Below, piece after piece: positions 11,035 to 36,239 of a DNA stretch of 64,000 bases. Positions within the stretch are counted from its first letter, which is position 1. The number at the start of each line of letters is the position of its first letter. Under the pieces are notes generated by a model. It was not told the DNA's origin and made no database searches. It was given only the letters and a program-made list of their open reading frames with translations. Origin of the DNA: an uncultured Gemmatimonadales bacterium (GTDB lineage: Bacteria > Actinomycetota > Acidimicrobiia > Spongiisociales > UBA5794); contig CAXMRC010000135.1 in assembly GCA_964195945.1 (NCBI GenBank), positions 16,518-80,517 of the forward strand. The letters run 5' to 3'. A program made the position numbers and the translations under genes.

Positions 11035-11076
11035 GACCGGGATTGTAGGTCCAGTTTGAGGAATCCAGGCGTCAAC

Positions 11077-11106
11077 TCAGGGCCCCGGTGCGACCGGGGC
11101 CCTGAG
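11077..11106. terminator. Perfect 14-bp stem hairpin (ctcagggccccggt gcg accggggccctgag) downstream of the minus-strand lipoprotein gene
   Basis: The inverted repeat is seen directly. It lies in the 80-nt gap after the lipoprotein gene and upstream of the DUF368 gene start. No clear U-tract. Confidence 0.4.
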
Positions 11107-11115
11107 AATCGTTCC

Positions 11116-11850: not shown

Positions 11851-11971
11851 TGCATCTCCGGGATTGGGTAAGCGGAATGATCGACCCTCGATCTTGCGGA
11901 ACCCTTGCCAACAGATTGCCGAACCATGAACTCTCACGGGTAATATTGGGCGACATCAAGCGGAGGCGTGG

Positions 11972-12991: not shown

Positions 12992-12997
12992 TGGTCA

Positions 12998-16733: not shown

Positions 16734-17189
16734 ATGAGAGCAGTTGTACAAAGGGTTGCCCGAGCATCGGTGACCGTAGAAAATGAGGTCGTTGGGGAGA
16801 TCGGTGCGGGGCTTCTGGTTCTGTTGGGTGTCGGCCATGGTGACGGCACTGCCGATGCGGAAGCCCTTGTTGACAAGCTGCTGGGACTACGCATCTTCCC
16901 CGACACCGAGAAGCGAATGAATCTCTCCGTTGTCGATATCGGTGGAGAGATGCTGGTGGTGAGCCAGTTCACGCTTCTTGCGGATATTCGTAAAGGACGA
17001 CGCCCGTCCTTTACGGGTGCGGCTGATCCCAAGATTGCATCTGCCGTAGTTGAAGAAGTCGTCGAATTGGTGCGTGCCCATGGATTAGCGGTGGCCACCG
17101 GCGAGTTCGGGGCGATGATGGATGTTGAGCTTCTCAACGCAGGTCCGGTGACGATCGTCGTCGATGTCGTCGATGGACGGGTTCAGTGA
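16734..17189 (+). CDS. dtd: D-aminoacyl-tRNA deacylase
   Basis: [10 protein letters not shown] is the characteristic N-terminus, and the SQFTL motif is present. 151 aa. Confidence 0.85.
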
Positions 17190-20100: not shown

Positions 20101-20236
20101 GACCACCCGTAACAAGATGAGCCAGGCGGTGGACGATGGTTGTGGTTTTGCCGGTCCCCGCTCCGGCGATGACGCGAAGGGGGAGGAGAGGATATTCGAT
20201 GATTGCTCTCTGCTCAGGTGTTGGAACGAAGTTCAT
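17183..20236 (-). CDS. adnB: AdnB-like UvrD-family helicase with a C-terminal RecB-type nuclease and Fe-S cysteines
   Basis: Walker A is [10 protein letters not shown], and the UvrD motifs [14 protein letters not shown] and HRAKGLEW follow. The C-terminus has a PD-(D/E)XK region plus [10 protein letters not shown]. The ATG at 20236 overlaps the upstream stop (ATGA). Confidence 0.75.
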
Positions 20237-23200
20237 ACGAACTCTGGACCTCCATCGGCCCACGCGGGGCATAAGGAACGTAGACCGCATCGATCACAGT
20301 GCGGACCGGGATTTGGTGACCAGTCCTCGTTTTGGATTCCAATGGCGATCGCGGTGAGGCGTGCTTCGACCTCGTCAAGTCCTTCCATCTTGAACTTGCG
20401 GACTGCGACCTTCTTGTTCGACGCCATCGGGTACCACAGTTCGGCCCCGACGACCGCGCCCAGCGCACCGATTTCCTCGTCACGCTGTGCGGCGAGTGCG
20501 TAGAACCCCAGCTGCAGCGACTCGCTGGCCTCGGCAACGGTGACCGGGCTTCTGCTTGTCTTGTAGTCGACCACGGTTACACCGGCGGGGGACACATCGA
20601 TCCTGTCGGCTCGTCCTGTCCACCTGACACCGGCTATCACCGTGTCGAGCCTTTGCTCCAAAACCGCGGCAGTTCGCTGCGGGGCCGGCCAGTTCTGGTA
20701 GAGCTTGGCCAAGCCAGCGTGAGCGCGCTGCACCCACGAGTTCGAGAAGGGGGGACCCTCAAAGTCGTATGGATCGAACCTGTCGTTTAGCTCTTGGAGC
20801 GCCTCCTCCAGAGTGCTGTGAGGCCGGCCGTCGGCGACGGCACGTTTTTCGGCTGCTTCCAGCACGTCGTGGATCAGCGTCCCAAACGTTGCGTGGATGG
20901 AGCTGTCCGATCCCACCTTGAGACGCCGTTCAAGTGCATAGCGACGGGGGCAGATTTCGTAGCCCTGCGCTTGCGAGGGAGACAGAACCGGATCGGCACC
21001 GACGAGGAGGTCGTTCGGTCCGCGGGCGGGGACACCGCTGAAAAGCTGCGGTGAGCGTAGATCCCAGGTTGGGCCGTCGGCGAGGGTTGTCAGTGCTGCA
21101 AGACGTGAGGGCGATGGTGCTGCCACGTCTGTCAAACAGCGTCGTAGTGCAGATTCGGCTTCGCTGGGGGTGACCGGTAGACGAGAAGATTCCTGGGGTG
21201 TGGTGTCAGGGGAAACGCATATCTCGATGCGGCCGGCTGGTCGGCCCGGATCTTGGTTGATGGTGGCGGCGATCTTGGTGAAGAACCTGCTCGGTCTTCC
21301 CGGCCCGTCGTCGAGGCCCCGCTCGGTTGCCGTCCACACGACCCGGCGTCGCGCCCGCGTCATTGCCGTGTAGGCGAGACGGCTCTCTTCCTGAAGACGG
21401 AAGGCGCGGTACTCGGCGGTGTCAGTCGGCACGTGAGGGAGAAGGTGCCTGACTCCGAGGAGAGAGTCGCGAGACCGGAGATCTGGGAAGACACCATCGA
21501 CGGCATCGGCGATGAAGACGACATCGAGCTCAAGCCCTTTCGCTTGGTGCAGGGTCGTCAAGGTAAGGCGATCACCGTCGGGTCGGCGGTAGCTGAGCAG
21601 CGGCTGTGCTTCGAAGTCTTCGCTTTCAGCCAAACCGCGGTAGTCGAGCAGCGTCCCTTTTGGATTTCTTTCTTCCCATCGATTGAGCACCTGCGCTAAC
21701 GACCGCCATGCCGCCCGCTCTTCGGCCGCGGTCGGGTCATTGACCATCTCTTCGATTCCAGGCAGCTCGCTCCATACACGCCACAAACCTTGCACCGCAG
21801 GAACCTGATTGGCCCAGCTGGCGTCTGCGATGAGGTTGGCCAGCGGAGCCCAATCTGGGAGGGTGGCCCTGATCGCGGGGGCCCAGGCGCCGGTTGATCT
21901 TGCGGTTCTTTCCAGTGCTCGGTACGCCCCAATGGTCAACCCGACGCGGGATCCGAGCAACACCCTCCGCAAGGATTGATTTGCTGCGATTGGTCCGTCA
22001 CACGCGGTAGCAGCTACGGCGAGGTCGAGTAGAAAGCGAACCGCGGGCTGGTCGGTGAGCCTGCTGCCGGGTAGTTCGTGGGGCACATGACGTCTCTCCA
22101 GTGCCCGTGACATGTCAGCCAGGAAGCGACGTTTGCTGCGAACGAAGACTCCGATGTTGCTGTACGGGATTCTCTCCGTCAGGTGGAGGCGCTGTGCCTC
22201 GGATGCGATCCATTCTGCTTCTTCTACCTGTTGGTCAAACAGATACGCCTCGACAGCACCGCGACCTGCGGCAGGGACTACGGCTCCTGTCGCCCCTGGG
22301 AGGTCTCCGGTGGTTACGTGTACGGCCGCGTTGAGGATGGTCTCTGGCGTACGGAAGGAGGTCGTCAGCAGAATGCGTGTTGCCATCTCATCCGAGGCCC
22401 CAAAATCGCTCTCGAACGCAGCGACATTTTCGACGGTGGCGCCGCGGAAGCTGTATATCGACTGGTAGGGATCGGCGGCAGCTGCGATATGCCGTCCGCG
22501 ATGCTGTAGAGCTTGTAGCAGTCGAACCTGGGCTGTAGTGGTGTCCTGGTACTCATCAACCAGGACATAGCCAGGGGAGTCGACCGTTGCGAGATCGCCG
22601 GACTCCAGCAAAGTGACCGCGGTAGCGATCAGGGTTCCGTAGTCGATGCGGTCGGTCCCGCGTAGCTCGTTGGTGTACGTCTCGAGGAATTGAGGGAGGC
22701 CTTTCCAATCATCCCGCTGCATCGTGGCGAGGGAGGTCGGTGTGTGCATCTGCTCGGCGGCGCGCAGTATGAAGTCGGTCACTTCCTTTGCAAATGTCTG
22801 AGTGCCAAGAAGCTGCGAAAACGCCTGTGACCACGACCCGGGGTTCTCCGCGAGGAGAAGACGATGTACAAGTGCAACTTGTTCCGGACCAGTCAGGATC
22901 TGAGGGTTGACGGTCCAACCCGCCTGCTCGGCATGGTTCTCGACGAGCCGTGCGGCATATGAGTGAAAAGTTGCGACATCGAGTTCCCCGATGGTCGCGG
23001 GTATGCCGGCGCGGATTCGTTCTCGAACCTCTGCCACACCACGGCGGGAGAAGCCGAGGATCGTAATAGCCTCGGGGCGAACTTCCTTTGCGGTAAGCAA
23101 GTGGATAGCCCGACGCACCAGAAACTCGGTCTTGCCGGTTCCCGGCCCCCCGACAACTATCTGTGGTCCGTCAGTTAGGGCGACCGCGTCGGCCCATCCG

Positions 23201-23247
23201 TCCGGTTCGACAGCGATGATCGGCGCGTCTTGGGACCATTGGCTCAC
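20233..23247 (-). CDS. adnA: AdnA-like UvrD-family helicase-nuclease subunit
   Basis: The N-terminus has VVGGPGTGKTEFL, and DEYQDT, IYSFRGA and HQAKGLE follow. The C-terminal nuclease region ends in HCDRCGLRSLC. The start overlaps the stop of the upstream nuclease gene. Confidence 0.75.
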   Translation of the reverse strand: MSQWSQDAPIIAVEPDGWADAVALTDGPQIVVGGPGTGKTEFLVRRAIHLLTAKEVRPEAITILGFSRRGVAEVRERIRAGIPATIGELDVATFHSYAARLVENHAEQAGWTVNPQILTGPEQVALVHRLLLAENPGSWSQAFSQLLGTQTFAKEVTDFILRAAEQMHTPTSLATMQRDDWKGLPQFLETYTNELRGTDRIDYGTLIATAVTLLESGDLATVDSPGYVLVDEYQDTTTAQVRLLQALQHRGRHIAAAADPYQSIYSFRGATVENVAAFESDFGASDEMATRILLTTSFRTPETILNAAVHVTTGDLPGATGAVVPAAGRGAVEAYLFDQQVEEAEWIASEAQRLHLTERIPYSNIGVFVRSKRRFLADMSRALERRHVPHELPGSRLTDQPAVRFLLDLAVAATACDGPIAANQSLRRVLLGSRVGLTIGAYRALERTARSTGAWAPAIRATLPDWAPLANLIADASWANQVPAVQGLWRVWSELPGIEEMVNDPTAAEERAAWRSLAQVLNRWEERNPKGTLLDYRGLAESEDFEAQPLLSYRRPDGDRLTLTTLHQAKGLELDVVFIADAVDGVFPDLRSRDSLLGVRHLLPHVPTDTAEYRAFRLQEESRLAYTAMTRARRRVVWTATERGLDDGPGRPSRFFTKIAATINQDPGRPAGRIEICVSPDTTPQESSRLPVTPSEAESALRRCLTDVAAPSPSRLAALTTLADGPTWDLRSPQLFSGVPARGPNDLLVGADPVLSPSQAQGYEICPRRYALERRLKVGSDSSIHATFGTLIHDVLEAAEKRAVADGRPHSTLEEALQELNDRFDPYDFEGPPFSNSWVQRAHAGLAKLYQNWPAPQRTAAVLEQRLDTVIAGVRWTGRADRIDVSPAGVTVVDYKTSRSPVTVAEASESLQLGFYALAAQRDEEIGALGAVVGAELWYPMASNKKVAVRKFKMEGLDEVEARLTAIAIGIQNEDWSPNPGPHCDRCGLRSLCPAWADGGPEFV

Positions 23248-24086
23248 GACGCGGCGACTGCGGCGTTCGCCTCATCGGCAAATGCAGGGCAGCGATCTTG
23301 GAACTGGCACCAACCACACAGCTTGCCTGGTCGGGGAGGGAAATCGTTTTTGACGATTGCCCGATTGATCGCAGACCACAATGCCTCTAACTTTCGCTGT
23401 GTTGCGTCCAGTTGGAGGTCGTTCACCGGTATCTCGTAGACGGTTGGCCCGTTGAGGTACATCAGCTTCAGGCGGACTGGAGTTCGTCCGATCCGCTTCC
23501 TGATCAATAACGCATAGATTTTTAGGGCAAAGAACGCCGGGATTGCATACTGCTCGGGAGGAGCTTTACCGGTCTTGTAATCAGTGATCACAACACCGTC
23601 CGGTTCCTCTTCCATACGGTCCAGGATCCCTCGAATCGTCATATCTCCGAGATCCTCGGTCATGTCCAGCTCGCGGTCGAGTGGCTCGAGTTGGGTCGGA
23701 TCCTCTACCAAGAAATAATTGGCGAGAACACCGAGACTTTCGATGCCCCAGGCCCGCTCATCTTCAGTGTTGTCAAAGAGGTCGGGGAACTCTTCGTCGC
23801 GGAGCTCCACCCACGCCTTGCGGAACAACCCGTAAAGGGTTTCGGGTGTTCGTTCTTTGGCGGCTAGGTCAAATAGCCATTGCAGTGCTAGATGAGCTGT
23901 TGTCCCGCGTGCCTGATAGACCGTTGGCGGAACTTCGATCTTGTCGATCGCCTTGAATTTGAAAAGCTGTGGGCAGACTTTGAAGTCGCCGGCGCGGCTT
24001 GGCGATAGCGTCTCCAAGGAGGTCGGCGGAGACATCTCCGGCTTCGGTCGAGGTGTCTTCTGCGGGGTTTTGTCAGGAGTTGTCAT
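23244..24086 (-). CDS. Cas4-like / RecB-family PD-(D/E)XK nuclease with a 4-Cys Fe-S cluster
   Basis: An N-terminal Cys (FKVCPQLF) pairs with a C-terminal CGWCQFQDRC, giving the C..CxxCx5C pattern. A DYK(TG) motif is present. GGAGA sits 5 nt before the ATG at 24086. The ORF track extends to 24344. Confidence 0.65.
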   Translation of the reverse strand: MTTPDKTPQKTPRPKPEMSPPTSLETLSPSRAGDFKVCPQLFKFKAIDKIEVPPTVYQARGTTAHLALQWLFDLAAKERTPETLYGLFRKAWVELRDEEFPDLFDNTEDERAWGIESLGVLANYFLVEDPTQLEPLDRELDMTEDLGDMTIRGILDRMEEEPDGVVITDYKTGKAPPEQYAIPAFFALKIYALLIRKRIGRTPVRLKLMYLNGPTVYEIPVNDLQLDATQRKLEALWSAINRAIVKNDFPPRPGKLCGWCQFQDRCPAFADEANAAVAAS

Positions 24087-24239
24087 CGTTTCTCCGACTA
24101 TACGCCGGCCCACCGACATAAACCACATCGATGTAGTTATCCACAGCCGGACGCGTCGATGGAGCAGCGGCAACAGCCGATGGTGATGCATCGCGAAACA
24201 ATTTCGTAGCACGCGAAAACTATAATGCGATCTGGTTTG

Positions 24240-24975
24240 ACTGCCCGCTGCGGTCGGCTTTACGTTATGGGTCCTTGAGGGCTCCACCCATGGAGGAGCG
24301 GAATTCGGAAGGACGGGACCAGGGAAACCGGACCCGACCGGCACCGGATTCTATGACCAGGGCGCTTGCGTCCACGGTCACCCGGAATGGATACATTCCG
24401 TCTCGGCGGCGCTTCGGCAAAGCCGGGAAACCCGCCGCAGGGACTTCGGTCTCAGTGGCACGTCGGACAGGCTTCGGCCTCAAAGACAGCCTGCGGGACT
24501 TCGGTCCGGCAGATGCTGCGGCTTCGGCCACAGCAAAACTGGGTGAGCTTCGGCTCGACCAGCGTTCTCCGAGTGAGGCGCATCGCCCACCGGGTGCGGG
24601 CTTCGGCCCAAGCCAGGTAGACGGTTGCCGCACCCGCAGGACCGATAAGACTTCTGGTCTTATCAACACACCGGTGCGATCGGTGGTCACGAGGGTTTCC
24701 TCGATTGAGAGCTTCGGCTCTGAACTGAGAGTCGTCAGGCTTAGGTCTGGTGGCAAGCCAGCGGGATCAAAAGGTCACACGGGTTGCCCCGAGCGAGGGC
24801 TTCGGCACTCGCAAGGAGCGGCACGGCTGGCTCGTGGCAGGACTTCGGTCCTGAACCGAGCGAGACGAGCAGCGACTGGAAGGGCCCGACCCCTCGGGGT
24901 AGGTGCCCGACCGAAAGCAAAGAATCCCCGAGAGGGTGGCGGTTTCGGCCAAAACTCCCTCGGGGTTTTCTTTGT
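24240..24975 (+). ncRNA. Candidate large structured RNA: an array of ~11 cUUCGg tetraloop hairpins ending in a terminator-like hairpin plus U-tract
   Basis: No convincing ORF covers the region. Perfect small palindromes recur at 24411, 24442, 24470, 24495, 24520, 24545, 24598, 24708, 24797 and 24840. Each carries a UUCG loop on the plus strand only. Nested junctions occur, for example CGGCGG..GCUUCGGC..CGGGAAACCCG..CCGCCG. The last hairpin (24918-24962) is followed by uuuucuuuguu. Confidence 0.35.
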
Positions 24976-24981
24976 TCGTGT

Positions 24982-25590
24982 TCAGCCGCAACCAGTGGCG
25001 AGCTCGATAAGGGTTACGGTGTCGGATTCCTCACGCCCACTGAGCAGCCCACGAATCTCAGTCCCGGCAATGCGGAACGACCACACATCCAGCTCCGTGT
25101 TGCCATCGACAGTCAAATCCGACCCGTAAGCGTCGGTGAGATCGCTGACGGTGCTTCCCAACCCCACACCAGCCGCGGTTGTCAATCTGAGGCCGCGGGG
25201 GTCAAATCCGCCCACGTTTTCGGAGTAGTCGTAGCCGTAGGAATAGGAGTAGAACCAGCCCCCAAGACGGTTCGCACCATCTCTGATGAAAATCGTCAAC
25301 AGGCTTCCCCACCCAATCGCCCGCATTTCGGAGCCGGGGCATGATCCGTAGATATTTGGCTCCGAGACAATCCAGTCGGAATCGTGATCGGGCTCACCGA
25401 AGAGGGCCGAGATCTCGGCGATCACGGTCTCCGGGGGCACCCCAAGCAGCACATCGCCGAGTCCATCATCCTCCAATACCAACTCCGCCAGCGGAGCGGT
25501 GTCGGACCCTTCCGGGCCGGGCTCGGTCACGGCGCACCCGGACGCCAGCAAGACCACGAACGCCAGGACAAGATGAGAGGTTGATCGCAT
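24982..25590 (-). CDS. Lipoprotein of unknown function
   Basis: Signal peptide plus lipobox MRSTSHLVLAFVVLLASGCAV. The ORF extends to 25839, and I take the signal-peptide Met at 25590 as the start. Confidence 0.5.
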   Translation of the reverse strand: MRSTSHLVLAFVVLLASGCAVTEPGPEGSDTAPLAELVLEDDGLGDVLLGVPPETVIAEISALFGEPDHDSDWIVSEPNIYGSCPGSEMRAIGWGSLLTIFIRDGANRLGGWFYSYSYGYDYSENVGGFDPRGLRLTTAAGVGLGSTVSDLTDAYGSDLTVDGNTELDVWSFRIAGTEIRGLLSGREESDTVTLIELATGCG

Positions 25591-25620
25591 AGGGAACCAA
25601 ACCCTAGAGCCAAACACCGC

Positions 25621-27414
25621 ATGGTCCAACGCGATAAGCTCCGTGCGGCTGGAGGAGAGCCGATGGATGACGATACAGGCAGCATGACTGACGGTTCGGG
25701 GCCCCGGGTCACGCGCGAGCTCGACCTCGTCGGTCGGCGGCGTGAGTTTCGGATCGCTGGTGTCACCGTTGCCGGTCGACGGCGACGCCCATCGGGAGAA
25801 GCTGCACCACTGCCACGGGAATTGCGGACAGCGGGTCATCTCTGGTTGCTATCCGGGCTTCTCATGGTCGCTGTCTGGATATCTCTCTTTTTGGTTCCGG
25901 CTTCAACAGACTGGTGGAGCGTCCAGGATCACAAAGCCTTGGCCTGGTTTGTCGACCTACGTTCGGACAGCCTCACCTCCGTTGCCAAAGCCTTCAACGC
26001 ACTGACCTCTGACATGTTTATCCGGGTGCTGCGGGTCGGGACTCTGCTCTCGCTGGTGTTTATCAAGAGATGGCGTCATTTCTTTGCGGTGCTGTTGGCA
26101 ATTCTGATCGTGCAGGGCACAGGCGAGGCCCTCCAGGGCATGGTCGGACGTCCCCGTCCGCTGGTTCCGATCCTTGCCGACTGGCGCGGTGCCTCCCACC
26201 CATCGCTCCCGGTGGCAGCGTTGGCGGTCACCTTTGGCGTTATGGCCTATGCGCTTCTTCCCAGCAGTAGGTGGAGACGAGGGATACTTGTTGGCTCGGG
26301 GGCGCTCATGGTCGTGGTGGCGTTTGCCAGGGTATATCTCGGGGTTGACCACCCATCCGATGCTTGGGTATCGCTGCTGTTTGCTCCCGCGGTGGCGGTC
26401 GTGGTGTTTCGGCTGTTCGCCCCGGAGGCTGCATTCCCGGTGTCATGGAAGCGTGGCGTCACTGCTCACCTCGACGTGTCGGGGCGCCGCGGTGTTGCTA
26501 TCCGTAACGCGGTGCGAGATCAGCTGGGTATCGAACTGGTCTCCATCGAGCCATTCGGGCAGGAAGGATCCGGCGGCTCGACACCCCTACGACTCGAAAT
26601 GGCCCCTGACCGAGCTCACGGTGAGAACTATCTATTCGCAAAGCTCTACAGCCAGACCCACCTGAGGTCGGATCGTTGGTACAAGGTGGGGAGGACAATC
26701 CTCTATGGAGCGCTCGAAGATGAGCTGCGCTTCACCTCGGTGCGCCGCTTGGTCGAGTACGAGGACTATATCCAGCGGGTGATGCGGGACTGCGGCATCC
26801 CGGCCGCGGAGCCGTTCGGAATCGTCGAGATAACCCCTGACAGGGAATATCTGATGGTGAGTCAATTCCTTTTCGAATCAGAGGAGTTGACGGATGCCGA
26901 AGTCGATGTCGATCTTGTCGACGACGCCCTCGGTGTTATTCGCCAGATGTGGGATGCCGGACTGGCCCACCGCGACATCAAACCTGCGAACGTGATGGTT
27001 AGGAACAATCAGGTCGTGCTTATCGACGTTGCGTTCGGAACGGTTCGCCCCAGCCCATGGCGACAAGCTGTGGATCTAGCCAACATGATGGTGATCCTGG
27101 CGTTGCGAACCGACGCGGAGCTCGTATACCAGCGGGCGCTACTGCAGTTCGATTCGCATGACATCGCCGAGGCATTCGCCGCAACACGGAGCGTTACGTT
27201 GCCGTCACAATCGCGTAGCTCGCTCGCTCTGTTGAAGCGTGAGGAAGGGATCGACATCGTCAAGGAATTCCGTCGCTTGGCGCCGGCAGCAGAGCCGATT
27301 TCGATACAGCGGTGGAGCACCCGGCGTATTGGCCTGACCGTCGGTGCTGCCTTCCTCGCAGTCCTGTTGCTCAGCATCATCGTGTCCGAGATCTCCGGAG
27401 GGGGCATGTTGTGA
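25621..27414 (+). CDS. Membrane protein fusing a PAP2 lipid phosphatase to a Hanks-type Ser/Thr-kinase-like domain
   Basis: The PAP2 motifs are VGRPRP, SHPS and ARVYLGVDHPSD. The kinase-like part has a G-loop FGQEGSGGS, a beta3 Lys in LFAKLY, an alphaC Glu, a catalytic loop LAHRDIKPANVMV and IDVAFG about 19 residues on. A C-terminal TM helix closes the protein. Confidence 0.6.
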   Translation: MVQRDKLRAAGGEPMDDDTGSMTDGSGPRVTRELDLVGRRREFRIAGVTVAGRRRRPSGEAAPLPRELRTAGHLWLLSGLLMVAVWISLFLVPASTDWWSVQDHKALAWFVDLRSDSLTSVAKAFNALTSDMFIRVLRVGTLLSLVFIKRWRHFFAVLLAILIVQGTGEALQGMVGRPRPLVPILADWRGASHPSLPVAALAVTFGVMAYALLPSSRWRRGILVGSGALMVVVAFARVYLGVDHPSDAWVSLLFAPAVAVVVFRLFAPEAAFPVSWKRGVTAHLDVSGRRGVAIRNAVRDQLGIELVSIEPFGQEGSGGSTPLRLEMAPDRAHGENYLFAKLYSQTHLRSDRWYKVGRTILYGALEDELRFTSVRRLVEYEDYIQRVMRDCGIPAAEPFGIVEITPDREYLMVSQFLFESEELTDAEVDVDLVDDALGVIRQMWDAGLAHRDIKPANVMVRNNQVVLIDVAFGTVRPSPWRQAVDLANMMVILALRTDAELVYQRALLQFDSHDIAEAFAATRSVTLPSQSRSSLALLKREEGIDIVKEFRRLAPAAEPISIQRWSTRRIGLTVGAAFLAVLLLSIIVSEISGGGML

Positions 27415-28274
27415 GCAAACGTCTCGTCCTTGTTGTAACGGCCATTGCTCTTGTCACAGCTGGTTGTGGGAGGCTCGGCCTCGGATTGCCCGCGTGTGAC
27501 ACGGGCACAAGTAGCCCAACGGGCGCTTCGGTGTTGACACTGCAGGCAGTACCGCGTGCCGACTACGCACCATGTCTCAATTCGCTGAAATTGGGCTGGG
27601 ATCACGTTGAGTTTGAGGTGCAAAGTGATCTGATGTCACTCGAGTTCGGGAGGCAGCGCGAACTCGAGTTCCAACCATTTCTCGAGGTACGTCTTACGCC
27701 TTCGTGCGATGTCGGTGATGCGGTCGAGGTGCCAAGCGGGATGGACGACATCGATCGGTTTGATGACATCACGCAGGTGACGGACGAGATTCGAGTGACG
27801 ATTGTTCCCGACGGAGAGCGGCCCCGTATCTTTGCCAACGGCCTCGCCGGTGATCTGGCCGGGGTGCGCATTGAGGATCGGCCGGTGGTTTTTGCGGTCG
27901 ACGAAGACATCGATTTCTCCGTTCGTTCTCGAGTCAACAAGGCGCTGTTTAGTGATCAATACGTGTGGATCGTCAATGATCTTGATATCGACGAAGGCAC
28001 GCTCGAGGTGCGCAGCACCCCTGATGGAGAGGGAGCGAGAGGTCTTGAGGTGGACGAGGCACTCCACCGTATCGAGGAGATGACTCCTGAGGTCAGCTAC
28101 CGAGGACAGTGGTACTTCGTATTCAACGGAGGATGCATCACGTACGACTTTGACGCCAAGGGAGCCGTCGCCACCACCATCGAACAGGACGCCGTTGAAG
28201 CGATTGGGTTCTATCCCAACAATGAACTCCGCGAAGCGGGCCGGCGGGCCGGCTACGAGATCATTGGTGAATAG
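27411..28274 (+). CDS. Lipoprotein of unknown function, translationally coupled to the PAP2-kinase gene
   Basis: The GTG start overlaps the upstream stop (GTGA). The signal peptide plus lipobox is VSKRLVLVVTAIALVTAGCG. Confidence 0.6.
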   Translation: MSKRLVLVVTAIALVTAGCGRLGLGLPACDTGTSSPTGASVLTLQAVPRADYAPCLNSLKLGWDHVEFEVQSDLMSLEFGRQRELEFQPFLEVRLTPSCDVGDAVEVPSGMDDIDRFDDITQVTDEIRVTIVPDGERPRIFANGLAGDLAGVRIEDRPVVFAVDEDIDFSVRSRVNKALFSDQYVWIVNDLDIDEGTLEVRSTPDGEGARGLEVDEALHRIEEMTPEVSYRGQWYFVFNGGCITYDFDAKGAVATTIEQDAVEAIGFYPNNELREAGRRAGYEIIGE

Positions 28275-28280
28275 ATCATC

Positions 28281-28979
28281 ATGACAAGTCCGGTCGAGCC
28301 CGAAAGTGCCGAGCACCACGGTATTGAACACCTGATTCTTGACGACCATCAGTGGGCGGAACGGATCGCGATTTTGCTGTGGGCGATTGCGGGGCTTTCC
28401 TTTGTTGCGATGGCGATTCCGGCAACCCGGGACATTCTCGATTCCTTCGATCTGTGGTTCAACGAACTGACCTATCCGATCAAGTGGGCCCCGTTGACAG
28501 ATCTGTCACACCTGATGGCCTTCCTCGGAAGCGCATGGTTTGTGTGGCCGTTTCGCCTGGTCGTGGGTTCGGTGCTGTATGTCAAGAAGCGTTGGCTCGC
28601 CCTGGCAGGGTGGGTGCTGCCGATTGTCATGTCTGAGCCATTGATCGGGTCGTTGAAGGCGGCTTACGACCGGCCCCGTCCGGTGGAAAGCCTGGTTGAC
28701 GTAGCTTCCGGTGCGTTCCCATCGGGGCATGCGGTCGCGGGTGCTGTCATTGCCATATCTTTGGTCATCGTGTTGGTTCCCCCTGGAGTCGCCCGACGGA
28801 ACCTCGAGATGGCTGCGGCCGGGTTCGCCGTGCTTATGGCGGGGTCGCGGCTGTATCTCGGCGCCCACTGGCTTACCGACGTTTTTGGAGGCGTTGCCCT
28901 TGGCGCGGCGTGTGCCATCGGCGGTGCGGCGATAGCACAGCGCTGGTACCGCCGACGGACCAGCACAGCCGGCTTCTAG
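28281..28979 (+). CDS. PAP2-family phosphatase (phosphatidic acid phosphatase type 2)
   Basis: The motifs are YDRPRP, PSGHA and GSRLYLGAHWLTD. It is hydrophobic with multiple TM segments. Confidence 0.7.
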   Translation: MTSPVEPESAEHHGIEHLILDDHQWAERIAILLWAIAGLSFVAMAIPATRDILDSFDLWFNELTYPIKWAPLTDLSHLMAFLGSAWFVWPFRLVVGSVLYVKKRWLALAGWVLPIVMSEPLIGSLKAAYDRPRPVESLVDVASGAFPSGHAVAGAVIAISLVIVLVPPGVARRNLEMAAAGFAVLMAGSRLYLGAHWLTDVFGGVALGAACAIGGAAIAQRWYRRRTSTAGF

Positions 28980-30202
28980 GATTGTGCGGTCACATAGGCG
29001 TCACCGGCTAATGCGGTCCGCTCCGATTCTGACATTCGCCACGTTTGGTTCCGCTGCCACAGCACATAGGAAGCTGCGCCAAGCGGAATTGGTAGAACAT
29101 ACGTTATAGCGCGGAAGACGAGGATCGCAGCAACCACCTCGGTCTTGGTGACCACGTCTAGTCCGATCGTTAGCGCCGCAACGTAGCCCAACTCGACGAC
29201 TCCGACACCACCCGGTGTCACCGGGAGGGCAGAAATCAATCTGACAAATGCGAACGCGGCCAGCACCTGAATCCAAGAGAGCTCTTCCTGGCTTACGCCG
29301 GTATGACGCAGGGTGATCAGTAGCACGGCATAGAGGGACAGGTGGCTGAGCATGGTGGCCAACGTCAGTTGTAGCCAGCGGTGCTGCAGAAGCCCGATCG
29401 TATCGCTGCGGAATCCGGCAGCCCGCTCACCCCAACTGCTGACAGGGCCTTTGCGCAAGATGCGGAGCAACTTTGACACCAGTCGTTCCAAAGCAGTACC
29501 GACGGATCGAGCAAGCCGATCGCTACCGAGAATCATCCAGAGACCTGTTACTGCGCCGCCTAAGGCCGCAAGCCCTATTGCCGAGGCCGTGATCCAAGCA
29601 TTCGAGACTTCGCTTTCAATGGCAAGCAGGCCAAGTGCGAGGATCGGCATGCCCATCTTGACGAAGTTGTTCCAGATCCCGGTCACCACGGCAGAGCGGG
29701 TTATGGCCGGCACAGAGAAGCCCCAAGAAGTCAGCATTGCGAGCGTGACGCCGACACCGATCGCCCCACCGCCGGGAAGAGTATTGGAGACGGCTGTGGA
29801 CGACTGATTGACCACAGTGGCTTCTCGCAAGCGAAGCCCGGGAAGCGCAGCAACGAGGACGAACCAGTAGGTAGCGAGATTCCAGAGCGCAACAATGCCC
29901 AACGAGATCGACTCCAGCCAGGTAAGTGACCGGACTGTTCCCCACACCTCGGTGTAATCAGCGATCCGGGGCATCACGCCAGCAAAGATGGCGACGACGA
30001 CGACTATCGAGATGACGGACTGGACAATTCGTCGTGTCTTTGGGGGCGGAGTTGTCCCGGATTGGTCTATGGACTTGGCCGCTTTGTCGCTCACTGTTTG
30101 GACCTCGTTAGTCGCCGTACGCGACACTACACGTTGGCCTCGTCTGCCCGGGCTGCGAGCCATAAACGGGTCGCGAAACAAAACAAAAAGGCGCGAAATC
30201 AA
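28976..30202 (-). CDS. Flippase-like integral membrane protein (lysylphosphatidylglycerol-synthase TM-region / UPF0104-like)
   Basis: About 8 TM helices with a GGGA(I)G(V)G segment, recognised by architecture. Its stop overlaps the PAP2 gene's stop region (convergent). Confidence 0.5.
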   Translation of the reverse strand: MISRLFVLFRDPFMARSPGRRGQRVVSRTATNEVQTVSDKAAKSIDQSGTTPPPKTRRIVQSVISIVVVVAIFAGVMPRIADYTEVWGTVRSLTWLESISLGIVALWNLATYWFVLVAALPGLRLREATVVNQSSTAVSNTLPGGGAIGVGVTLAMLTSWGFSVPAITRSAVVTGIWNNFVKMGMPILALGLLAIESEVSNAWITASAIGLAALGGAVTGLWMILGSDRLARSVGTALERLVSKLLRILRKGPVSSWGERAAGFRSDTIGLLQHRWLQLTLATMLSHLSLYAVLLITLRHTGVSQEELSWIQVLAAFAFVRLISALPVTPGGVGVVELGYVAALTIGLDVVTKTEVVAAILVFRAITYVLPIPLGAASYVLWQRNQTWRMSESERTALAGDAYVTAQS

Positions 30203-30530: not shown

Positions 30531-30653
30531 AAGTACCTTCGCATCGTTCTTGCGGATAGTTGAGCGCTAGTGGTGTGTCCGCAAGTTCGCAGAGACCCGA
30601 GCACCAACCCAGAGGATCGCCAGTCCCTGAGTGAGACGGCGTATGATTGGGCC

Positions 30654-31286
30654 ATGGCATTTCCAGAGAACATCCTCACCGACGACGAGTCCATCATCCG
30701 ACAATTCCGACCCCACTGGAGGATGCTTGCCATCCCCGTGCTGTGGGTCATCGCCGCCATTGTGGCGATCGTTGTGGTTTTCCAAGTTATCGACGCCGAG
30801 GGTTGGGTAGCGATAGCCCTCGTCGCTCTGATCTTGCTTGCGTTGATCCCACTAGGTGTGAACCCGTTCATCAAGTGGTTCTTTACTTCCTATGTGCTGA
30901 CGAGCGAGCGTCTCATTACCCGTACCGGGATGATCGCTCGCAGCGGGATCGAACTCCCGCTGCAGAACATCAACAATGTGCTGTTCAACCAAAGCATCAT
31001 CGAACGGTTCCTCAAGTCAGGGGATTTACTGATCGAGTCGGCAGGGGAGAGCGGACAGAGCGAGTTCACGAACATTCCGAATCCCGAAGAGTTCCAATCC
31101 TTGCTGTATCGGACCCGTGAAGATCAGAGCCGCAACACCGCGGCTGAGGAGTCAGCGATCGCGGCCGAGATCACTCGGGACCCGACGGAACAACTCGAAA
31201 GAGCGGCGAAGCTTCGCCAAGAGGGTGTGCTTTCGGATACGGAGTTCGAGGATATGAAGCGCAAGATCCTCGGAGATGCCGAGTAG
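30654..31286 (+). CDS. bPH_2 (YdbS/YdbT-like bacterial PH domain) membrane protein with a C-terminal SHOCT domain
   Basis: A two-TM hairpin is followed by a PH-like region and a C-terminal LRQEGVLSDTEFEDMKRKIL. The ORF opens at 30570, and the likely start is the internal Met at 30654. Confidence 0.5.
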   Translation: MAFPENILTDDESIIRQFRPHWRMLAIPVLWVIAAIVAIVVVFQVIDAEGWVAIALVALILLALIPLGVNPFIKWFFTSYVLTSERLITRTGMIARSGIELPLQNINNVLFNQSIIERFLKSGDLLIESAGESGQSEFTNIPNPEEFQSLLYRTREDQSRNTAAEESAIAAEITRDPTEQLERAAKLRQEGVLSDTEFEDMKRKILGDAE

Positions 31287-33626: not shown

Positions 33627-34412
33627 ATGCTGCTCGAAGGAAAGAGGATTGTCGTCACCGGTGTGCTCACCGACGACTCCATCGCATTCCATGTGGCCCG
33701 CGTAGCCCAGGAACAAGGTGCCGAAGTAGTTCTCACTGGTTTCGGTCGGGCGCTCCGTCTCACCCAAAGGGCAGCAAAACGTTTGCCGGTGGCGCCCGAC
33801 GTCCTCGAACTCGATATCGGCAGCGATGAGGACATGGCTGCACTGGTCGCAAATCTCGATGAGCGTTGGGGGGCCGTCGACGGTGCGGTTCACGCCATCG
33901 CATATGCGCCCCATGATGCGCTAGGGGGCAACTTCCTCAACACCCCTGCCGAGAGCGCTTCGACAGCGTTTCTGACGTCGGCCTTTTCCTACAAGACGCT
34001 CGCAGCAGGTCTGCTGCCCTTGATGAAGAAGGCAGGCGGCGGATCTCTGGTCGCGCTTGACTTCGACAATACCCAGGCATGGCCGTTGTACGACTGGATG
34101 GGAGTCGCCAAAGCTGCATTGCAGGCGGTCACTCGCTATCTGGCGCGTGACCTTGGTGCCGACGATATCCGCGCCAACGCCGTAGCCGCCGGCCCGCTGG
34201 GAACGGTGGCCGCCAAATCTATCCCGCACTTCGAACTGTTTGAAAGAGAGTGGGCGGTCCGTGCTCCGCTGGGGTGGGATGTCCATGATGCGACACCTGT
34301 TGCAGAGATGGTCGCCGTGTTGTTATCAGACTGGTCAAGAATGACGACCGGTGAAGTCATTCACGTGGACGGCGGGTTTCACGCAATTGCGGCGGGTGCG
34401 GAACCTTCGTAG
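33627..34412 (+). CDS. inhA: Enoyl-ACP reductase, NADH-dependent (InhA/FabI)
   Basis: MLLEGKRIVVTGV..DSIAFHVARVAQEQGAEVVLTGF is near-collinear with M. tuberculosis InhA. AGGAGGG lies 4 nt upstream of the ATG at 33627. The longer 33198 ORF is a run-in. Confidence 0.85.
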   Translation: MLLEGKRIVVTGVLTDDSIAFHVARVAQEQGAEVVLTGFGRALRLTQRAAKRLPVAPDVLELDIGSDEDMAALVANLDERWGAVDGAVHAIAYAPHDALGGNFLNTPAESASTAFLTSAFSYKTLAAGLLPLMKKAGGGSLVALDFDNTQAWPLYDWMGVAKAALQAVTRYLARDLGADDIRANAVAAGPLGTVAAKSIPHFELFEREWAVRAPLGWDVHDATPVAEMVAVLLSDWSRMTTGEVIHVDGGFHAIAAGAEPS

Positions 34413-36172
34413 CGAACCCTGGCGACCTTTGGCAGAGACACGGTAAACGTCGCCCCACCGCCCGCGGTTGGCTGGAACCACACTCTGCCTCCGATGACCT
34501 CAGATAGGCCACGGACGATCGACAGACCGAGGCCGGTCCCGCCAGCAGATCTCGTGTAGTGCGGTGCGAGTTGGGTGAAGCGATCAAAGATGTGATCGTG
34601 GAGTTCGTAGGGGATCCCCTCGCCATGATCGATGACCGAAAGCCATACTTCGTTTCCGTTGAGCATGCCGACGATGTCGATCGGGCTTCCCGGTGCGTAC
34701 TTCAGAGCATTGCCAACGAGGTTCACCAGGATCCGGTGCAGATGATCGGGGTCCGTTTCTACTGAGTCGACACCCGGCCCGGTCTGTACGTAAGTGACCT
34801 CGGCCGCATCGGGAATATGGGCAACGGTGTCCTCGATGAAATCCTGGAGATGGATCAACTCGGGTCGGACCGGCAAGGCCTGGTTATCGAGTCGGGAAAC
34901 GACGAGCAAGTCCTCAATCAGAGAACGGAGACGATTTGCTTGCCGGCTTGCTGTATCGACCAACTGTTGTGCGCTGGGGTCGGGATGGACTAGCTGTGGT
35001 CGCTGCAGCGTGCTCAAAGAACCGATGATTGCGGTCAGAGGGGTGCGCAGCTCGTGGCTAACGACGCTGACGAAGTCGGTCTTTAGCTGGGCGAGTTCCA
35101 TCGCCTTCTGGCTGTTCTCCTGCGCCTCTTCGTACCTGGCGAGCTGATTGAGCACCAGCGCCGAAGGGCCGGCAAGCGACTCGAGCAAGGCCAGATCATT
35201 GATGGTGAAATGGCTGTCACGCTTCTCTGCGGTGATCAACACACCGATCGGCCGATTCTCGATGCGGAGCGGGACCGCGGCGAGCTCGTGGCTTCCGAGT
35301 TCAAGGAGGAAGGCATCCGCCTCTTCGGCTTGTTCTTCGAGGTTGTTGAAGACGGCAGGCTCCCCGCTTGTGAAGACCTGTTGAGCGATGCTTGGCTCTG
35401 ACAGCGGCAGTAAGTAGCCCTCTGCCCGTAAGGTTTGGCCTGCAACCCAGATCGGTGACATGACTTCGAGCGCTTCTTCGTCACGGCGATACAGCAACAC
35501 CACTCCGATGCGAGCTTCGAGTGCGTTGGCCAACCGGCCTACGAGTTCTGGGAGGACCTCTGACAGATTGCTGCCAACTCCGATAGTCCGTGAGACGTCG
35601 TAGAGGCGTTGCAACTCTTGTTCCTTGTCGGTGAGGAAGCGCTCTCGCTCTTCAAAAGTGTGGACCCGCCTCGCAGCTACCTCGACGTGACGATGAAGAT
35701 TTCCTGCACCTACCGCGACCAGGGTTGCGGTTATCGCAAAGGCGGCGGTCCGCCAGGCGCCGACATTGGCGGGTAGCTCTGTTTCGTTTGTGATGTAGGT
35801 GAACGCCCCTACCGCGGCTACCGCGATTCCTGCCACGTATATGCCACGCAAGGAGATAACGGCGGGAAGGATGATCATGCCGAGGAGGGCGATGGCGACG
35901 ACCGCGCCGTCGCTGGTCGAGCCAAGGATGATCACAGCCATTATGCCGAGTGTCGCCCAGAACAGAATCACAAGGTCTGCAACGATTGACCGCAAGACCC
36001 GGCCCCAAGGGACCACTGTGAGTAGCACCAGAGCTAGACCAAAGAACGGGACGCTGTCCGTCCAGAACGATTTGCCAGCCTCGTTGCGCGCAACTACAAC
36101 GACAACGAAGGCAACCCACGACATCAGTACAGCGATATACACCGCACGGATGCGATGTCGAATTGGTGGCAT
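34379..36172 (-). CDS. GAF-domain sensor histidine kinase with a multi-TM N-terminal domain
   Basis: About 7 TM helices precede a GAF domain. The H-box is VSHELRTPL and HATPase motifs such as GTGLGLSIVRG follow. No response regulator is adjacent. Confidence 0.75.
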   Translation of the reverse strand: MPPIRHRIRAVYIAVLMSWVAFVVVVVARNEAGKSFWTDSVPFFGLALVLLTVVPWGRVLRSIVADLVILFWATLGIMAVIILGSTSDGAVVAIALLGMIILPAVISLRGIYVAGIAVAAVGAFTYITNETELPANVGAWRTAAFAITATLVAVGAGNLHRHVEVAARRVHTFEERERFLTDKEQELQRLYDVSRTIGVGSNLSEVLPELVGRLANALEARIGVVLLYRRDEEALEVMSPIWVAGQTLRAEGYLLPLSEPSIAQQVFTSGEPAVFNNLEEQAEEADAFLLELGSHELAAVPLRIENRPIGVLITAEKRDSHFTINDLALLESLAGPSALVLNQLARYEEAQENSQKAMELAQLKTDFVSVVSHELRTPLTAIIGSLSTLQRPQLVHPDPSAQQLVDTASRQANRLRSLIEDLLVVSRLDNQALPVRPELIHLQDFIEDTVAHIPDAAEVTYVQTGPGVDSVETDPDHLHRILVNLVGNALKYAPGSPIDIVGMLNGNEVWLSVIDHGEGIPYELHDHIFDRFTQLAPHYTRSAGGTGLGLSIVRGLSEVIGGRVWFQPTAGGGATFTVSLPKVARVRYEGSAPAAIA

Positions 36173-36239
36173 TTCAGTCGTCAAATGAGCTTTTCCCAGA
36201 TATATGTACGTTGCCCGTTCGCCACGGTAACCTCTCCAC

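Follow-up and report, generated by a model that had tools for sequence, protein, structure and literature searches.

What kind of protein is encoded by the long reading frame that begins near nucleotide 25621 of the window (the whole 64,000-nucleotide stretch of DNA analysed here), and does it join a lipid phosphatase to a protein kinase? The first-pass annotation described an intact PAP2 phosphatase fused to a Hanks-type kinase. The fusion proved to be a real, single ORF, but neither 'intact PAP2' nor 'Hanks-type' withstood closer analysis.

The fusion gene and its distribution

The ORF list contains a single unbroken frame at 25621-27414, and the same single ORF recurs across numerous independent assemblies, both metagenomic and genomic, with identities from 100% down to ~45%, and on at least 185 genome contigs. 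Cultured carriers with isolate genomes include Geodermatophilus and Blastococcus, and the linker between the two domains (FAPExxFPV) is itself conserved among relatives. Judged from these sequences, the fusion is one real gene that is common in Actinomycetota. The concern that a frameshift, sequencing or assembly error had joined two genes was therefore rejected on the basis of the recurring ORF and the conserved linker; no supporting evidence for it was found, and we regard such an artefact as vanishingly improbable.

The true start of the gene is likely to be 25663 rather than 25621, because homologs are 583 aa in length (among those recovered, P0001 is identical, and many others are of this size) and because a Shine-Dalgarno sequence (GGAGGAG, 25651-25657) lies 7 nt upstream of the ATG at this position. 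In 1034 representative clusters (E<=1e-3), the kinase family is always accompanied by a PAP2-like domain. No description of a pseudo-PAP2/kinase fusion was found in the literature searchable here, in agreement with the earlier remark on its novelty; the protein most likely serves as an envelope-lipid signalling kinase of an uncharacterised kind. The features of the locus are collected in Table 1.

Table 1. Features of the fusion gene and the genes beside it (window coordinates)
Feature	Extent	Coordinates	Strand	Basis
Pseudo-PAP2/kinase membrane protein gene	583 aa	25663..27414	+	Longest ORF from 25621; start 25663 likely true
Juxtamembrane motif RRRRPSGE	aa 39-46	25777..25800	+	Cytoplasmic, precedes TM1; conservation in 104 relatives
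Six-TM PAP2-fold domain	aa 52-255	25816..26427	+	Pfam PAP2, 5jki profile, Foldseek
Cytoplasmic protein-kinase-like domain	aa 262-550	26446..27312	+	Conserved catalytic residues, PDB fold matches
C-terminal TM helix (TM7)	aa 556-574	27328..27384	+	Hydropathy 2.68; AF2 helix 553-577
Translationally coupled lipoprotein	287 aa	27411..28274	+	GTG overlap, lipobox, downstream homologs
Stand-alone canonical PAP2 phosphatase	232 aa	28281..28979	+	Pfam PAP2 54.1 bits
Flippase-like membrane protein, MprF N-terminal-type LPG_synthase_TM		28976..30202	-	PF03706 70.3 bits; TIGR00374 28.8

The PAP2-fold and kinase-like domains

Hydropathy reveals seven hydrophobic segments, six N-terminal and one C-terminal, which bears out the proposed order of a PAP2-fold membrane domain, a cytoplasmic kinase-like domain and a final TM helix. 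The short loops are positively charged, a positive-inside pattern that indicates an N-in topology, and sequence and models alike place the N-terminal tail and the kinase domain in the cytoplasm. The same two lines of evidence establish TM7 as a second membrane anchor of the kinase domain, which conserved linkers connect to TM6 (FAPExxFP) and to TM7 (IQRWSxRR). Only 9 residues follow TM7 in the window protein, and in relatives of ~700-735 aa an extracytoplasmic domain comes after it.

The Pfam PAP2 model scores the fusion at 25.2-26.9 bits, just under the cutoff of 27.2. A family profile matches Bacillus subtilis PgpB (PDB 5jki) with E 1.7e-17, and Foldseek aligns the AF2 model, whose confidence is low in the N-terminal tail and in the loop with the C1/C2 remnants, to the same structure with a TMt of 0.70. 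The motifs KxxxxxxRP, PSGH and SRx5Hx3D had all been reported as present, a claim that fails once the register is fixed by profile alignment to 5jki: the C1 Lys position is occupied by Gln158, PSGH reads PSLP with Pro183 at the C2 His position, and Asp229 takes the C3 His position, with a His one residue on. Among the 104 family members used to count residue conservation, the C1 position is Ala, Ser or Gln and Lys is never dominant, the C2 position is Pro in 89, and the C3 nucleophile position is Asp in 86 and His in only one. Since the family as a whole has lost the canonical catalytic Lys and the two His residues, we conclude from sequence that the fused PAP2 domain is degenerate and not an intact lipid phosphatase. 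Several phosphate-contacting residues are retained in its outward pocket (R163/R165-P166, P180-S181, R223, H230 and D233). Mean identity to the window protein across the 104 relatives is 60% for the kinase part versus 36% for the PAP2-like part.

The kinase landmarks comprise a Gly-rich loop (299-306), K327, the catalytic loop H436-R-D438-x-K440-x-x-N443, D455 and the alphaF residue D471. All four motifs listed in the first-pass annotation (GQEGSGG, FAKLY, HRDIKPAN and IDVAFG) occur in the protein and are retained by 102-104 of the 104 relatives, the HRDxKxxN loop by 102. The DFG-Asp (D455) and the alphaF Asp (D471) are separated by 16 residues, a spacing that leaves no activation loop or APE. 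Sequence and models thus show a minimal protein-kinase-like domain with the full set of ATP-binding and catalytic residues and no activation loop.

Assigning this domain to a known family is less straightforward, as its scores stay under the family thresholds of both Pfam and NCBIfam (Pkinase, RIO1, APH, Kdo and Bud32 alike). Pkinase reaches 20.3 bits (cutoff 31.7; E 4e-4) and aligns to the catalytic-loop region alone, and this loop is all that stands of the Hanks-type assignment. The suggested check of lipid against protein kinases left both sub-threshold, with Kdo at E 0.05. Bud32 reaches 28 bits (threshold 125) and RIO1 15.6 (threshold 22), and there are weak matches of the Kdo/WaaP, APH and choline-kinase types. 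Pkinase is the commonest Pfam match among relatives (16/17), and some of them clear the threshold for Kdo, RIO1 or APH instead, as does P0126 with Kdo (25.3 bits versus 21.3). The best PDB sequence match is 8k20_B, and the best Foldseek folds are RIOK3, RIOK1, Bud32, PRPK and MJ1130; TM-scores are higher for RIO/PRPK (0.55) than for PknB (0.43-0.46). The modelled fold is therefore closest to RIO/Bud32.

Within the juxtamembrane motif, R41, P43 and G45 are found in all 104 relatives, R42 in 103 and E46 in 84. Position 44 is Ser in 85, Thr in 15, Ala in two and Val in one, such that 100 of the 104 carry Ser or Thr. RRP[S/T]GE is kept in N-terminally extended variants as well, and we consider it a candidate phospho-acceptor or docking site. 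Phosphorylation at position 44 could not be universal, because three relatives have Ala or Val and the residue is deleted in P0134.

Partner genes and further fusions

The GTG start of the lipoprotein gene at 27411 overlaps the TGA of the fusion (27412-27414), confirming the GTGA coupling noted earlier, and GGAGGGGG sits 6 nt upstream of this start. The product carries an A-G-C lipobox in its signal peptide, and Cys18 is invariant, as are four more Cys residues. It has no match in Pfam or NCBIfam, and its AF2 model has a pLDDT of 88. A homolog lies directly downstream of the fusion in 62 of 72 loci. A lipoprotein HMM also matches the C-terminal extension of at least 40 fused relatives (E down to 1e-26), and in many lineages the domain is fused after TM7, the last TM helix. 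Sequence and models therefore identify the lipoprotein as a detached form of the extracytoplasmic domain that many relatives carry after TM7.

The second PAP2 gene, annotated from the outset as stand-alone, begins 6 nt past the lipoprotein stop and is canonical, with intact motifs (KAAYDRPRP, PSGH and SRLYLGAHWLTD). The proposal of an envelope-lipid dephosphorylation module thus holds for this neighbour but not for the fusion. Homologous canonical PAP2 domains are fused N-terminally in P0180 and P0251. The convergent LPG_synthase_TM gene was also correctly recognised; it overlaps the PAP2 gene by 4 nt and its product has no synthase domain. Of 40 loci, 27-31 encode a flippase-like homolog within ±6 kb, which in Geodermatophilaceae shares the strand of the fusion, and 23-29 have a PAP2 gene near the fusion. 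In Geodermatophilus amargosae, the order is fusion-lipoprotein-flippase-PAP2-PAP2 on one strand. By these gene orders, the four-gene cluster is conserved from Acidimicrobiia to Geodermatophilaceae, and its functional clustering, as originally proposed, is further backed by the gene fusions that join its members.

Other fusions and neighbours are of the regulatory kind. REC and LuxR-HTH domains are fused N-terminally in P0134 and P0161, a STAND NTPase with TPR is fused in P0121-P0125 and P0202, and at loci L082 and L083 a HisKA_3/NarL pair and a cyclase-AAA_16-TPR gene adjoin the module. Judging by this gene content, the wider genomic context is one of signalling.

Known systems, competing readings and a proposed mechanism

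The fusion shares with PAP2 enzymes (PF01569; B. subtilis PgpB/YodM 5jki and Escherichia coli PgpB, YbjG and LpxT) a six-TM fold with active-site loops on the outer face, together with remnants of the motifs (RP of C1, PS of C2, and R and D of C3). It differs in lacking the C1 Lys, C2 His and C3 nucleophile His at their canonical positions, and in adding a kinase domain and a seventh TM helix. Actinobacterial Hanks receptor kinases such as PknB, with its PASTA sensors, follow the same logic, in which a TM helix connects a cytoplasmic kinase with an extracytoplasmic domain, the latter being here a lipoprotein or, in relatives, a fused domain. They also share the Gly-rich loop, the beta3 Lys and HRDIKPAN. 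However, the fusion kinase has no activation segment, which makes control by T-loop phosphorylation impossible, and it is preceded by a polytopic pseudo-enzyme whose sensor would face lipid rather than being a soluble PASTA repeat. The idea that a PAP2 domain occupies the sensor position is, if anything, strengthened.

A similar layout is seen in Mycobacterium tuberculosis MviN/MurJ (Rv3910; reviewed in PMC12599244), where a lipid II flippase carries, as fused parts, a pseudokinase in the cytoplasm, a TM helix and an extracellular domain. Both actinobacterial proteins have a polytopic envelope-lipid domain, a kinase fold with an activation-loop deletion, a single TM helix and an extracytoplasmic domain, and both couple Ser/Thr-kinase-type signalling to the biology of lipid carriers. 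MviN, however, has an active membrane domain and a dead kinase, whereas in the fusion the membrane domain is degenerate and the kinase looks active. No specific sequence relationship between the two was detected, and MviN structures are not among the top PDB matches.

Several other readings must be weighed. An intact PAP2 phosphatase joined to a standard PknB-like Ser/Thr kinase under activation-loop control could account for the HRDIKPAN loop, the prevalence of Pkinase matches among relatives and the PknB structures among the Foldseek matches. The missing PAP2 Lys and His residues, the partial sub-threshold Pkinase alignment, the absent activation loop and APE, and the better TM-scores of RIO/PRPK largely refute this reading, which we consider very improbable. 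Minimal kinases without an activation loop, such as RIO and Bud32, are often ATPases, and the domain might likewise serve as an ATPase or conformational switch that drives or gates the membrane module, for example via the flippase-like protein, with no protein being phosphorylated. The best sequence and fold matches (Bud32, PRPK and RIO) fit this view, as do the absence of an activation loop or substrate-binding P+1/APE region, and the fusion shares with Bud32/PRPK (KEOPS) and RIO a minimal fold, the missing GHI substrate-binding subdomain and an AVDL-type alphaF motif soon after the DFG-Asp. Yet its scores fall far under the thresholds, its loop is HRDxKxxN, as in Hanks kinases, rather than HGDLxxxN, and the conserved basic Ser/Thr motif beside the membrane looks like a substrate. 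In contrast to Bud32/PRPK and RIO, the kinase is embedded between TM helices and has no Kae1 or ribosome context. We view such a switch as distinctly unlikely.

A bifunctional lipid enzyme is also unlikely, if not far-fetched. In this scheme, an outer-face phosphatase that is active but non-canonical, relying on the shifted His179 and His230 together with Asp229 and Asp233, and an inner-face kinase for membrane lipid or polyprenol would, with the flippase-like protein and second PAP2, cycle carrier-lipid phosphorylation. H179, P180, S181, D229, H230, D233, R163 and R165 are invariant in the close clade, both ends of the kinase are anchored in the membrane, and the conserved neighbours are all lipid-handling membrane proteins. 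The weak lipid-kinase-type matches and P0126 point the same way. Kdo/WaaP-type kinases phosphorylate glycolipids, and Kdo kinase and WaaP/WaaY (PF06293 and PF06176) share the minimal PKL fold at the cytoplasmic membrane face and lipid-linked substrates. These enzymes are not TM-fused, however, and they act in LPS-specific pathways that are not known from Actinomycetota. Moreover, position 179 is His in only 39 of 104 members family-wide, the canonical C1, C2 and C3 residues are lost, and the Ser/Thr-kinase-type Lys of HRDxKxxN, absent from Kdo, APH, RIO and Bud32, is kept. The REC-HTH and STAND-TPR fusions are what one expects of signalling proteins rather than of metabolic lipid kinases.

We tentatively favour, at a little under an even chance, a receptor-type signalling kinase built on a pseudo-phosphatase lipid sensor. 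We counted towards this reading the loss of PAP2 catalytic residues versus strict retention of kinase residues; the seven-TM positive-inside pattern, AF2 model and 5jki fold match; the fusions and neighbourhoods that tie the four genes together, with the signalling-type fusions; and the Ser/Thr at motif position 44. Counted against it were the close-clade invariance of H179, H230, D229 and D233, which is compatible with a non-canonical phosphatase, the relatives that pass Kdo, RIO1 or APH thresholds but not Pkinase, the frequent ATPase role of minimal kinases and the glycolipid substrates of Kdo/WaaP-type kinases, the relatives without Ser or Thr at position 44, and the low AF2 confidence in the N-terminal tail and the C1/C2 loop.

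In the proposed mechanism of this receptor-type kinase, the degenerate outward pocket would bind an outer-leaflet lipid phosphate or pyrophosphate without hydrolysing it. The ligand, which we infer purely from the neighbouring genes, might be polyprenyl-PP/P, a phosphatidyl-phosphate or another molecule of the type that the neighbouring canonical PAP2 and the flippase-like protein act on. Pocket occupancy, together with the lipoprotein, would signal by way of TM6 and TM7 to the kinase, which would phosphorylate a cytoplasmic target, RRP[S/T]GE being the first candidate. The fusion most likely acts together with the products of its neighbouring genes (lipoprotein, genuine PAP2 phosphatase and flippase-like protein), and phosphorylation of its target may thereby adjust envelope-lipid or carrier homeostasis.

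The fused gene and its locus

In the ORF listing of the window, the fused protein lies in a single unbroken reading frame. Its close homologs are 583 aa in length in a protein search, which also recovered an identical database protein (P0001), and a Shine-Dalgarno sequence (GGAGGAG) is located 7 nt before an internal ATG; on these two grounds we place the start at this ATG. The stop codon of the fusion overlaps the GTG start of the lipoprotein gene in the sequence GTGA, in agreement with the translational coupling noted in the first-pass annotation. The stand-alone PAP2 gene (232 aa) begins 6 nt past the lipoprotein stop, and its 3' end shares 4 nt with the convergent LPG_synthase_TM gene. Coordinates are collected in the table below.

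Positions of the genes and signals discussed, in the window or in the locus named
Sequence	Feature	Position	Strand
Window	Two large UvrD-helicase/PD-(D/E)XK nuclease genes (AdnAB-like) and a third PDDEXK gene	17183-24344	-
Window	Second lipoprotein-like gene	24982-25596	-
Window	Unbroken ORF containing the fusion	25621-27414	+
Window	Fusion gene, ATG start at first position	25663-27414	+
Window	TGA stop of fusion	27412-27414	+
Window	Lipoprotein gene, GTG start at first position	27411-28274	+
Window	Stand-alone PAP2 gene	28281-28979	+
Window	Flippase-like (LPG_synthase_TM) gene	28976-30202	-
Window	bPH_2/SHOCT membrane protein gene	30570-31286	+
Window	GAF-HisKA-HATPase histidine kinase gene	34379-36241	-
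Window	ddl (D-Ala-D-Ala ligase)	36240-37250	+
L082	HisKA_3/NarL pair	10703-12621	
L083	Guanylate-cyclase-AAA_16-TPR gene	10056-13367	

The fusion is not an artefact, a possibility to which we assign a negligible probability, and its description as one fused gene holds: the same single ORF recurs widely in many assemblies, including isolate genomes. In the first protein search, all 8000 scored candidates match at E ≤ 1e-3, and a genome scan uncovered at least 185 relatives, with the matches listed coming from Acidimicrobiia, Geodermatophilaceae (Blastococcus and Geodermatophilus isolates among them), Nitriliruptoraceae, Nanopelagicales, Jatrophihabitantaceae, Streptosporangiaceae and Pseudonocardiales. 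When the kinase-like domain was the sole query, 1034 cluster representatives were found at E ≤ 1e-3 and 287 at E ≤ 1e-30. At 50% identity the fusion family forms more than 1000 clusters, and it occurs widely among Geodermatophilaceae and the Acidimicrobiia of marine and soil habitats. Loci L003, L008, L012, L016 and L046 also carry copies, which share 49-66% identity with the Acidimicrobiia protein. Their MAGs bear the labels Myxococcales, Gammaproteobacteria, Kiloniellaceae, Acidobacteria and Methylomirabilota; these copies may reflect binning contamination rather than true spread outside Actinomycetota.

The window is otherwise an ordinary Acidimicrobiia-type chromosome (GC ~60%) that also encodes AdnAB-like helicase-nucleases, FabI, Ddl, RecG and SMC. 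The AdnAB-like and PDDEXK genes lie immediately upstream of the region described here and are syntenic in three related loci (L001, L002 and L004). Further downstream, a histidine kinase gene is arranged back-to-back with ddl, and the two starts overlap by 2 nt. The second lipoprotein-like gene (MRSTSHLVLAFVVLLASGC...) is divergently transcribed and lies upstream, with ~66 bp between it and the fusion; no Pfam model matches it, and only the close relatives L001 and L002 retain it. On the other side, the gene adjoining the flippase-like gene encodes a membrane protein that combines a bacterial PH domain (bPH_2, 62.6 bits) with a SHOCT tail, and its synteny extends only to the closest relative. 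Given that both genes are conserved only in close relatives, we dropped them as members of the module.

The PAP2-like and kinase-like halves

Hydropathy reveals six N-terminal TM segments. Because the short loops at residues 135-138 and 200-207 are K/R-rich and the N-terminal tail is basic, the N-terminus and the kinase are predicted to be cytoplasmic and the motif-bearing loops to be outside, which is the standard PAP2 topology. Assignment of this half to the PAP2 six-TM fold is sound. The family profile matches the B. subtilis PgpB structure (5jki) with an E-value of 1.7e-17, and a Foldseek comparison with the same structure gives a TMt of 0.70. The window protein scores 25.2-26.9 bits with Pfam PAP2 (PF01569), just below the cutoff of 27.2, and several relatives exceed that cutoff.

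The register of the three catalytic motifs (C1 to C3) was set by profile alignment to 5jki, and residues were counted over 104 aligned full-length relatives. At C1 (KxxxxxxRP), KEWIERVRP of 5jki aligns with ...QGMVGRPRP of the fusion, which puts Gln158 of the window protein at the Lys position; the relatives have A (35), S (18), Q (11), T (9) or another residue there. SFPSGH aligns with SHPSLP at C2 (PSGH), where the general-acid His position is Pro in 89 of 104 proteins and His in none. At C3 (SRxxxxxHxxxD), SRVYLGVHFVTD aligns with ARVYLGVDHPSD, and the nucleophile His position is occupied by Asp in 86 relatives and by His in one; one position further on, 74/104 carry His (H230). Other PAP2 positions are retained, namely R165 (98), P166 (100), P180 (101), S181 (97), R223 (80) and D233 (85). 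The first-pass annotation had recorded all three motifs as present in the fusion, and this proved wrong, given that the Lys and both His positions are lost across the family. Since the catalytic positions are lost and other motif residues retained, we consider the domain to be a conserved but degenerate PAP2. Judged by its residues, it is one that keeps part of the putative phosphate-binding shell without the catalytic machinery known for the PAP2 family.

Immediately before TM1, the cytoplasmic tail carries a motif that is essentially universal among the 104 relatives, R41-R42-P43-[S/T]-G45-E46, with residue 44 being S in 85, T in 15, A in 2 and V in 1. The motif keeps its position in relatives with long N-terminal extensions. 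The RRRR stretch of this motif was rejected as a Tat signal, as it lies ~16 residues ahead of the hydrophobic segment and is kept at an internal position in the N-terminal fusions. Within the close clade, both the linker between TM6 and the kinase (FAPExxFPV, AHLD) and the segment before TM7 (IQRWSxRR) are invariant, and thus the kinase is fixed to the membrane on either side.

The kinase-like half is the better conserved, with a mean identity to the window protein of 60% versus 36% for the membrane half. The glycine loop, beta3 Lys, HRDxKxxN loop and DFG Asp noted earlier in the fusion are all present and conserved across the 104 relatives: K327 is found in 103, H436 in 104, R437 and D438 in 103 each, K440 in 102, and N443 and D455 in 103 each. 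The Gly-rich loop of the family reads G299xEGSGGS and the DFG motif D-V-A-F. Three acidic residues (E354, E367 and D368) are each invariant (104/104), and the alphaF Asp471 is present in 103.

Classification of this domain as Hanks-type fares less well. The HRDxKxxN loop fits, but with 20.3-21.6 bits the domain misses the 31.7 cutoff of Pfam Pkinase (PF00069), in an alignment confined to the catalytic-loop region (profile positions 102-143). Only 16 residues separate D455 from the alphaF D471, the AF2 model begins a helix at 465, and both sequence and model lack an activation loop and an APE motif, and the C-lobe is minimal, as in Bud32 and RIO kinases. The best match among solved structures by sequence is a 226-aa Bud32-type kinase (8k20_B), and the top Foldseek folds are RIOK3, RIOK1, MJ1130 Kae1-Bud32 and PRPK (TMt up to 0.55), with PknB at 0.43-0.46. 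On these four grounds the domain is not a standard Hanks one. The Bud32 model TIGR03724 (28 bits versus a threshold of 125) and the RIO1 model (15.6-17.3 versus 22) also fall short, as do the APH and ABC1 models on the window protein. For Kdo/WaaP (PF06293), an alternative raised earlier, the window protein stays below the threshold of 21.3 bits (13.5-14.9), and one homolog, P0126, passes it with 25.3 bits. Weak matches among 17 diverse relatives are most frequent for Pkinase (16), followed by RIO1 (10), APH (9) and Kdo (8, at E < 0.01). Of the proposed PAP2 plus Pkinase architecture, the PAP2 fold is confirmed by the 5jki match, and the Pfam PAP2, Pkinase and Kdo models are all sub-threshold on the window protein. 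The description that best fits its sequence is a distinct family of minimal protein-kinase-like domains whose HRDxKxxN loop is in the style of Ser/Thr kinases.

A distant family member, P0238 (545 aa), shares 40% identity over the kinase region. Its catalytic loop is degenerate (HGGIGPRAL), Arg replaces the beta3 Lys and the Gly-rich loop is degraded; the tail motif is retained as RHPSGE. This protein appears to be a pseudokinase offshoot.

Partner genes and fusions

The adjacent lipoprotein begins with KRLVLVVTAIALVTAG-C, a signal peptide with an N-terminal hydrophobic segment and a lipobox Cys (Cys18) that is invariant in 25 homologs. Four further Cys residues are also invariant, which fits an extracytoplasmic location. 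No Pfam or NCBIfam model matches this protein. Its link to the fusion is strong: by tblastn, a homolog lies directly 3' of the fusion on the same strand in 62 of the 72 loci with enough flank, and in at least 40 longer relatives the lipoprotein HMM matches a C-terminal extension past the last TM helix (E down to 1e-26). The fused versions in other lineages are without the middle part (HMM positions ~120-225). An AF2 model (pLDDT 88) comprises a beta domain and an alpha/beta domain, the latter C-terminal and superposing on the anticodon-binding domain of class II aaRSs such as ThrRS (2.4 Å over ~100 residues). This was the sole match of the fold search and is a generic fold, and we set it aside as a functional clue.

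The stand-alone PAP2 has all three motifs intact (KAAYDRPRP, PSGH and SRLYLGAHWLTD; 54 bits), and a canonical PAP2 is fused N-terminally in the homologs P0180 and P0251. The convergent gene matches LPG_synthase_TM (PF03706) with 70.3 bits against a cutoff of 33.4; it lacks an aminoacyl-PG synthase domain and scores 41.9 against 600 with the full MprF model. Neighbourhoods were assessed by tblastn, jackhmmer and HMM searches with targeted Pfam scans, naive ORF calling being unreliable in high-GC loci. Of 40 loci flanked by 4 kb or more in each direction, 23-29 have a separate PAP2 and 27-31 have an LPG_synthase_TM gene; in Geodermatophilus amargosae, one strand carries the fusion, lipoprotein, flippase-like, PAP2 and PAP2 genes in that order. 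Hence the cluster originally noticed in the window recurs in other loci and is supported by gene fusions.

Further domains join the pseudo-PAP2/kinase module at its N-terminus. These are a NarL-type REC plus LuxR/GerE HTH in P0134 and P0161, and a STAND NTPase plus TPR in P0121-P0125 and P0202. Unfused modules have a HisKA_3/NarL pair beside them in L082 and a guanylate-cyclase-AAA_16-TPR gene in L083.

Proposed function and its alternatives

On these sequence features, we rate the fusion as a candidate pseudo-enzyme sensor or receptor kinase of the bacterial Ser/Thr type. We observe its architecture, topology, residue patterns, neighbourhoods and fusions directly, and from them we infer ligand binding, relay, substrate and physiological output. 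The most economical reading, to which we give slightly less than an even chance, is a receptor-type signalling kinase with a pseudo-phosphatase lipid sensor. The outward PAP2-derived pocket would bind a lipid phosphate, probably without hydrolysing it, the extracytoplasmic partner domain would cooperate as part of the receptor, and rigid linkers would connect the membrane domain to the cytoplasmic kinase. Because it has no activation loop, the kinase would have to be regulated through the membrane domain, and the nearby basic S/T motif would be its first candidate substrate. Co-encoding of an active PAP2 and an MprF-type flippase-like protein suggests that the kinase monitors how a phosphorylated envelope lipid or carrier is turned over or recycled. 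We advance only tentatively, as a rather doubtful proposal, a new actinobacterial receptor-kinase class in which the PAP2-derived domain would sense the lipid-carrier pool (e.g. polyprenyl-PP or -P on the outer leaflet), and the kinase would phosphorylate its own RRP[S/T]GE motif and tune the PAP2/flippase-like pair and, in some lineages, the fused NarL-type transcription factor or STAND protein.

Other interpretations deserve consideration. The shifted His at C3 and the Kdo score of P0126 could suit a bifunctional protein, with a non-canonical phosphatase and a lipid kinase, which we consider unlikely in view of the substitutions at C1 to C3. The RIO and Bud32 folds could instead indicate an ATPase switch of that type, and we think this more unlikely still, given the sub-threshold scores of both models. 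An intact PAP2 joined to a standard Hanks kinase, as first proposed, would account for the HRDxKxxN loop, and is very improbable in light of the lost catalytic residues and missing activation loop.

Automated annotation already recognises both halves of the fusion. JGI names family proteins 'Bud32 / membrane-associated phospholipid phosphatase', and some database entries list both PF00069 and PF01569. The NCBI name, 'phosphatase PAP2 family protein', omits the kinase and assigns an activity that the protein probably lacks, and our result corrects it. A literature search found no description of a PAP2-like/kinase fusion family: the 'PAP2-PIK-like module' of a 2026 preprint is a different, unfused Bacteroidota (Segetibacter) protein, SEAE1, and PAP2 goes unmentioned in a preprint atlas of bacterial STKs.

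The nearest layout that we can name is that of M. tuberculosis MviN, a polytopic lipid II flippase with a cytoplasmic pseudokinase from which the activation loop is deleted, a TM helix and an extracellular domain (PMC12599244). The active and inactive roles are swapped relative to the fusion, and no specific sequence link between the two proteins was found. The family has clear fusion partners, which point to signalling, and its presence in cultured Geodermatophilus and Blastococcus strains makes it directly testable. Little is understood of how bacteria monitor their membrane lipid carriers and the state of phospholipid intermediates, and the fusion is a compact sensor-kinase candidate for this role; if this is true, such a pseudo-enzyme-kinase sensor would mirror the mycobacterial MviN flippase-pseudokinase.
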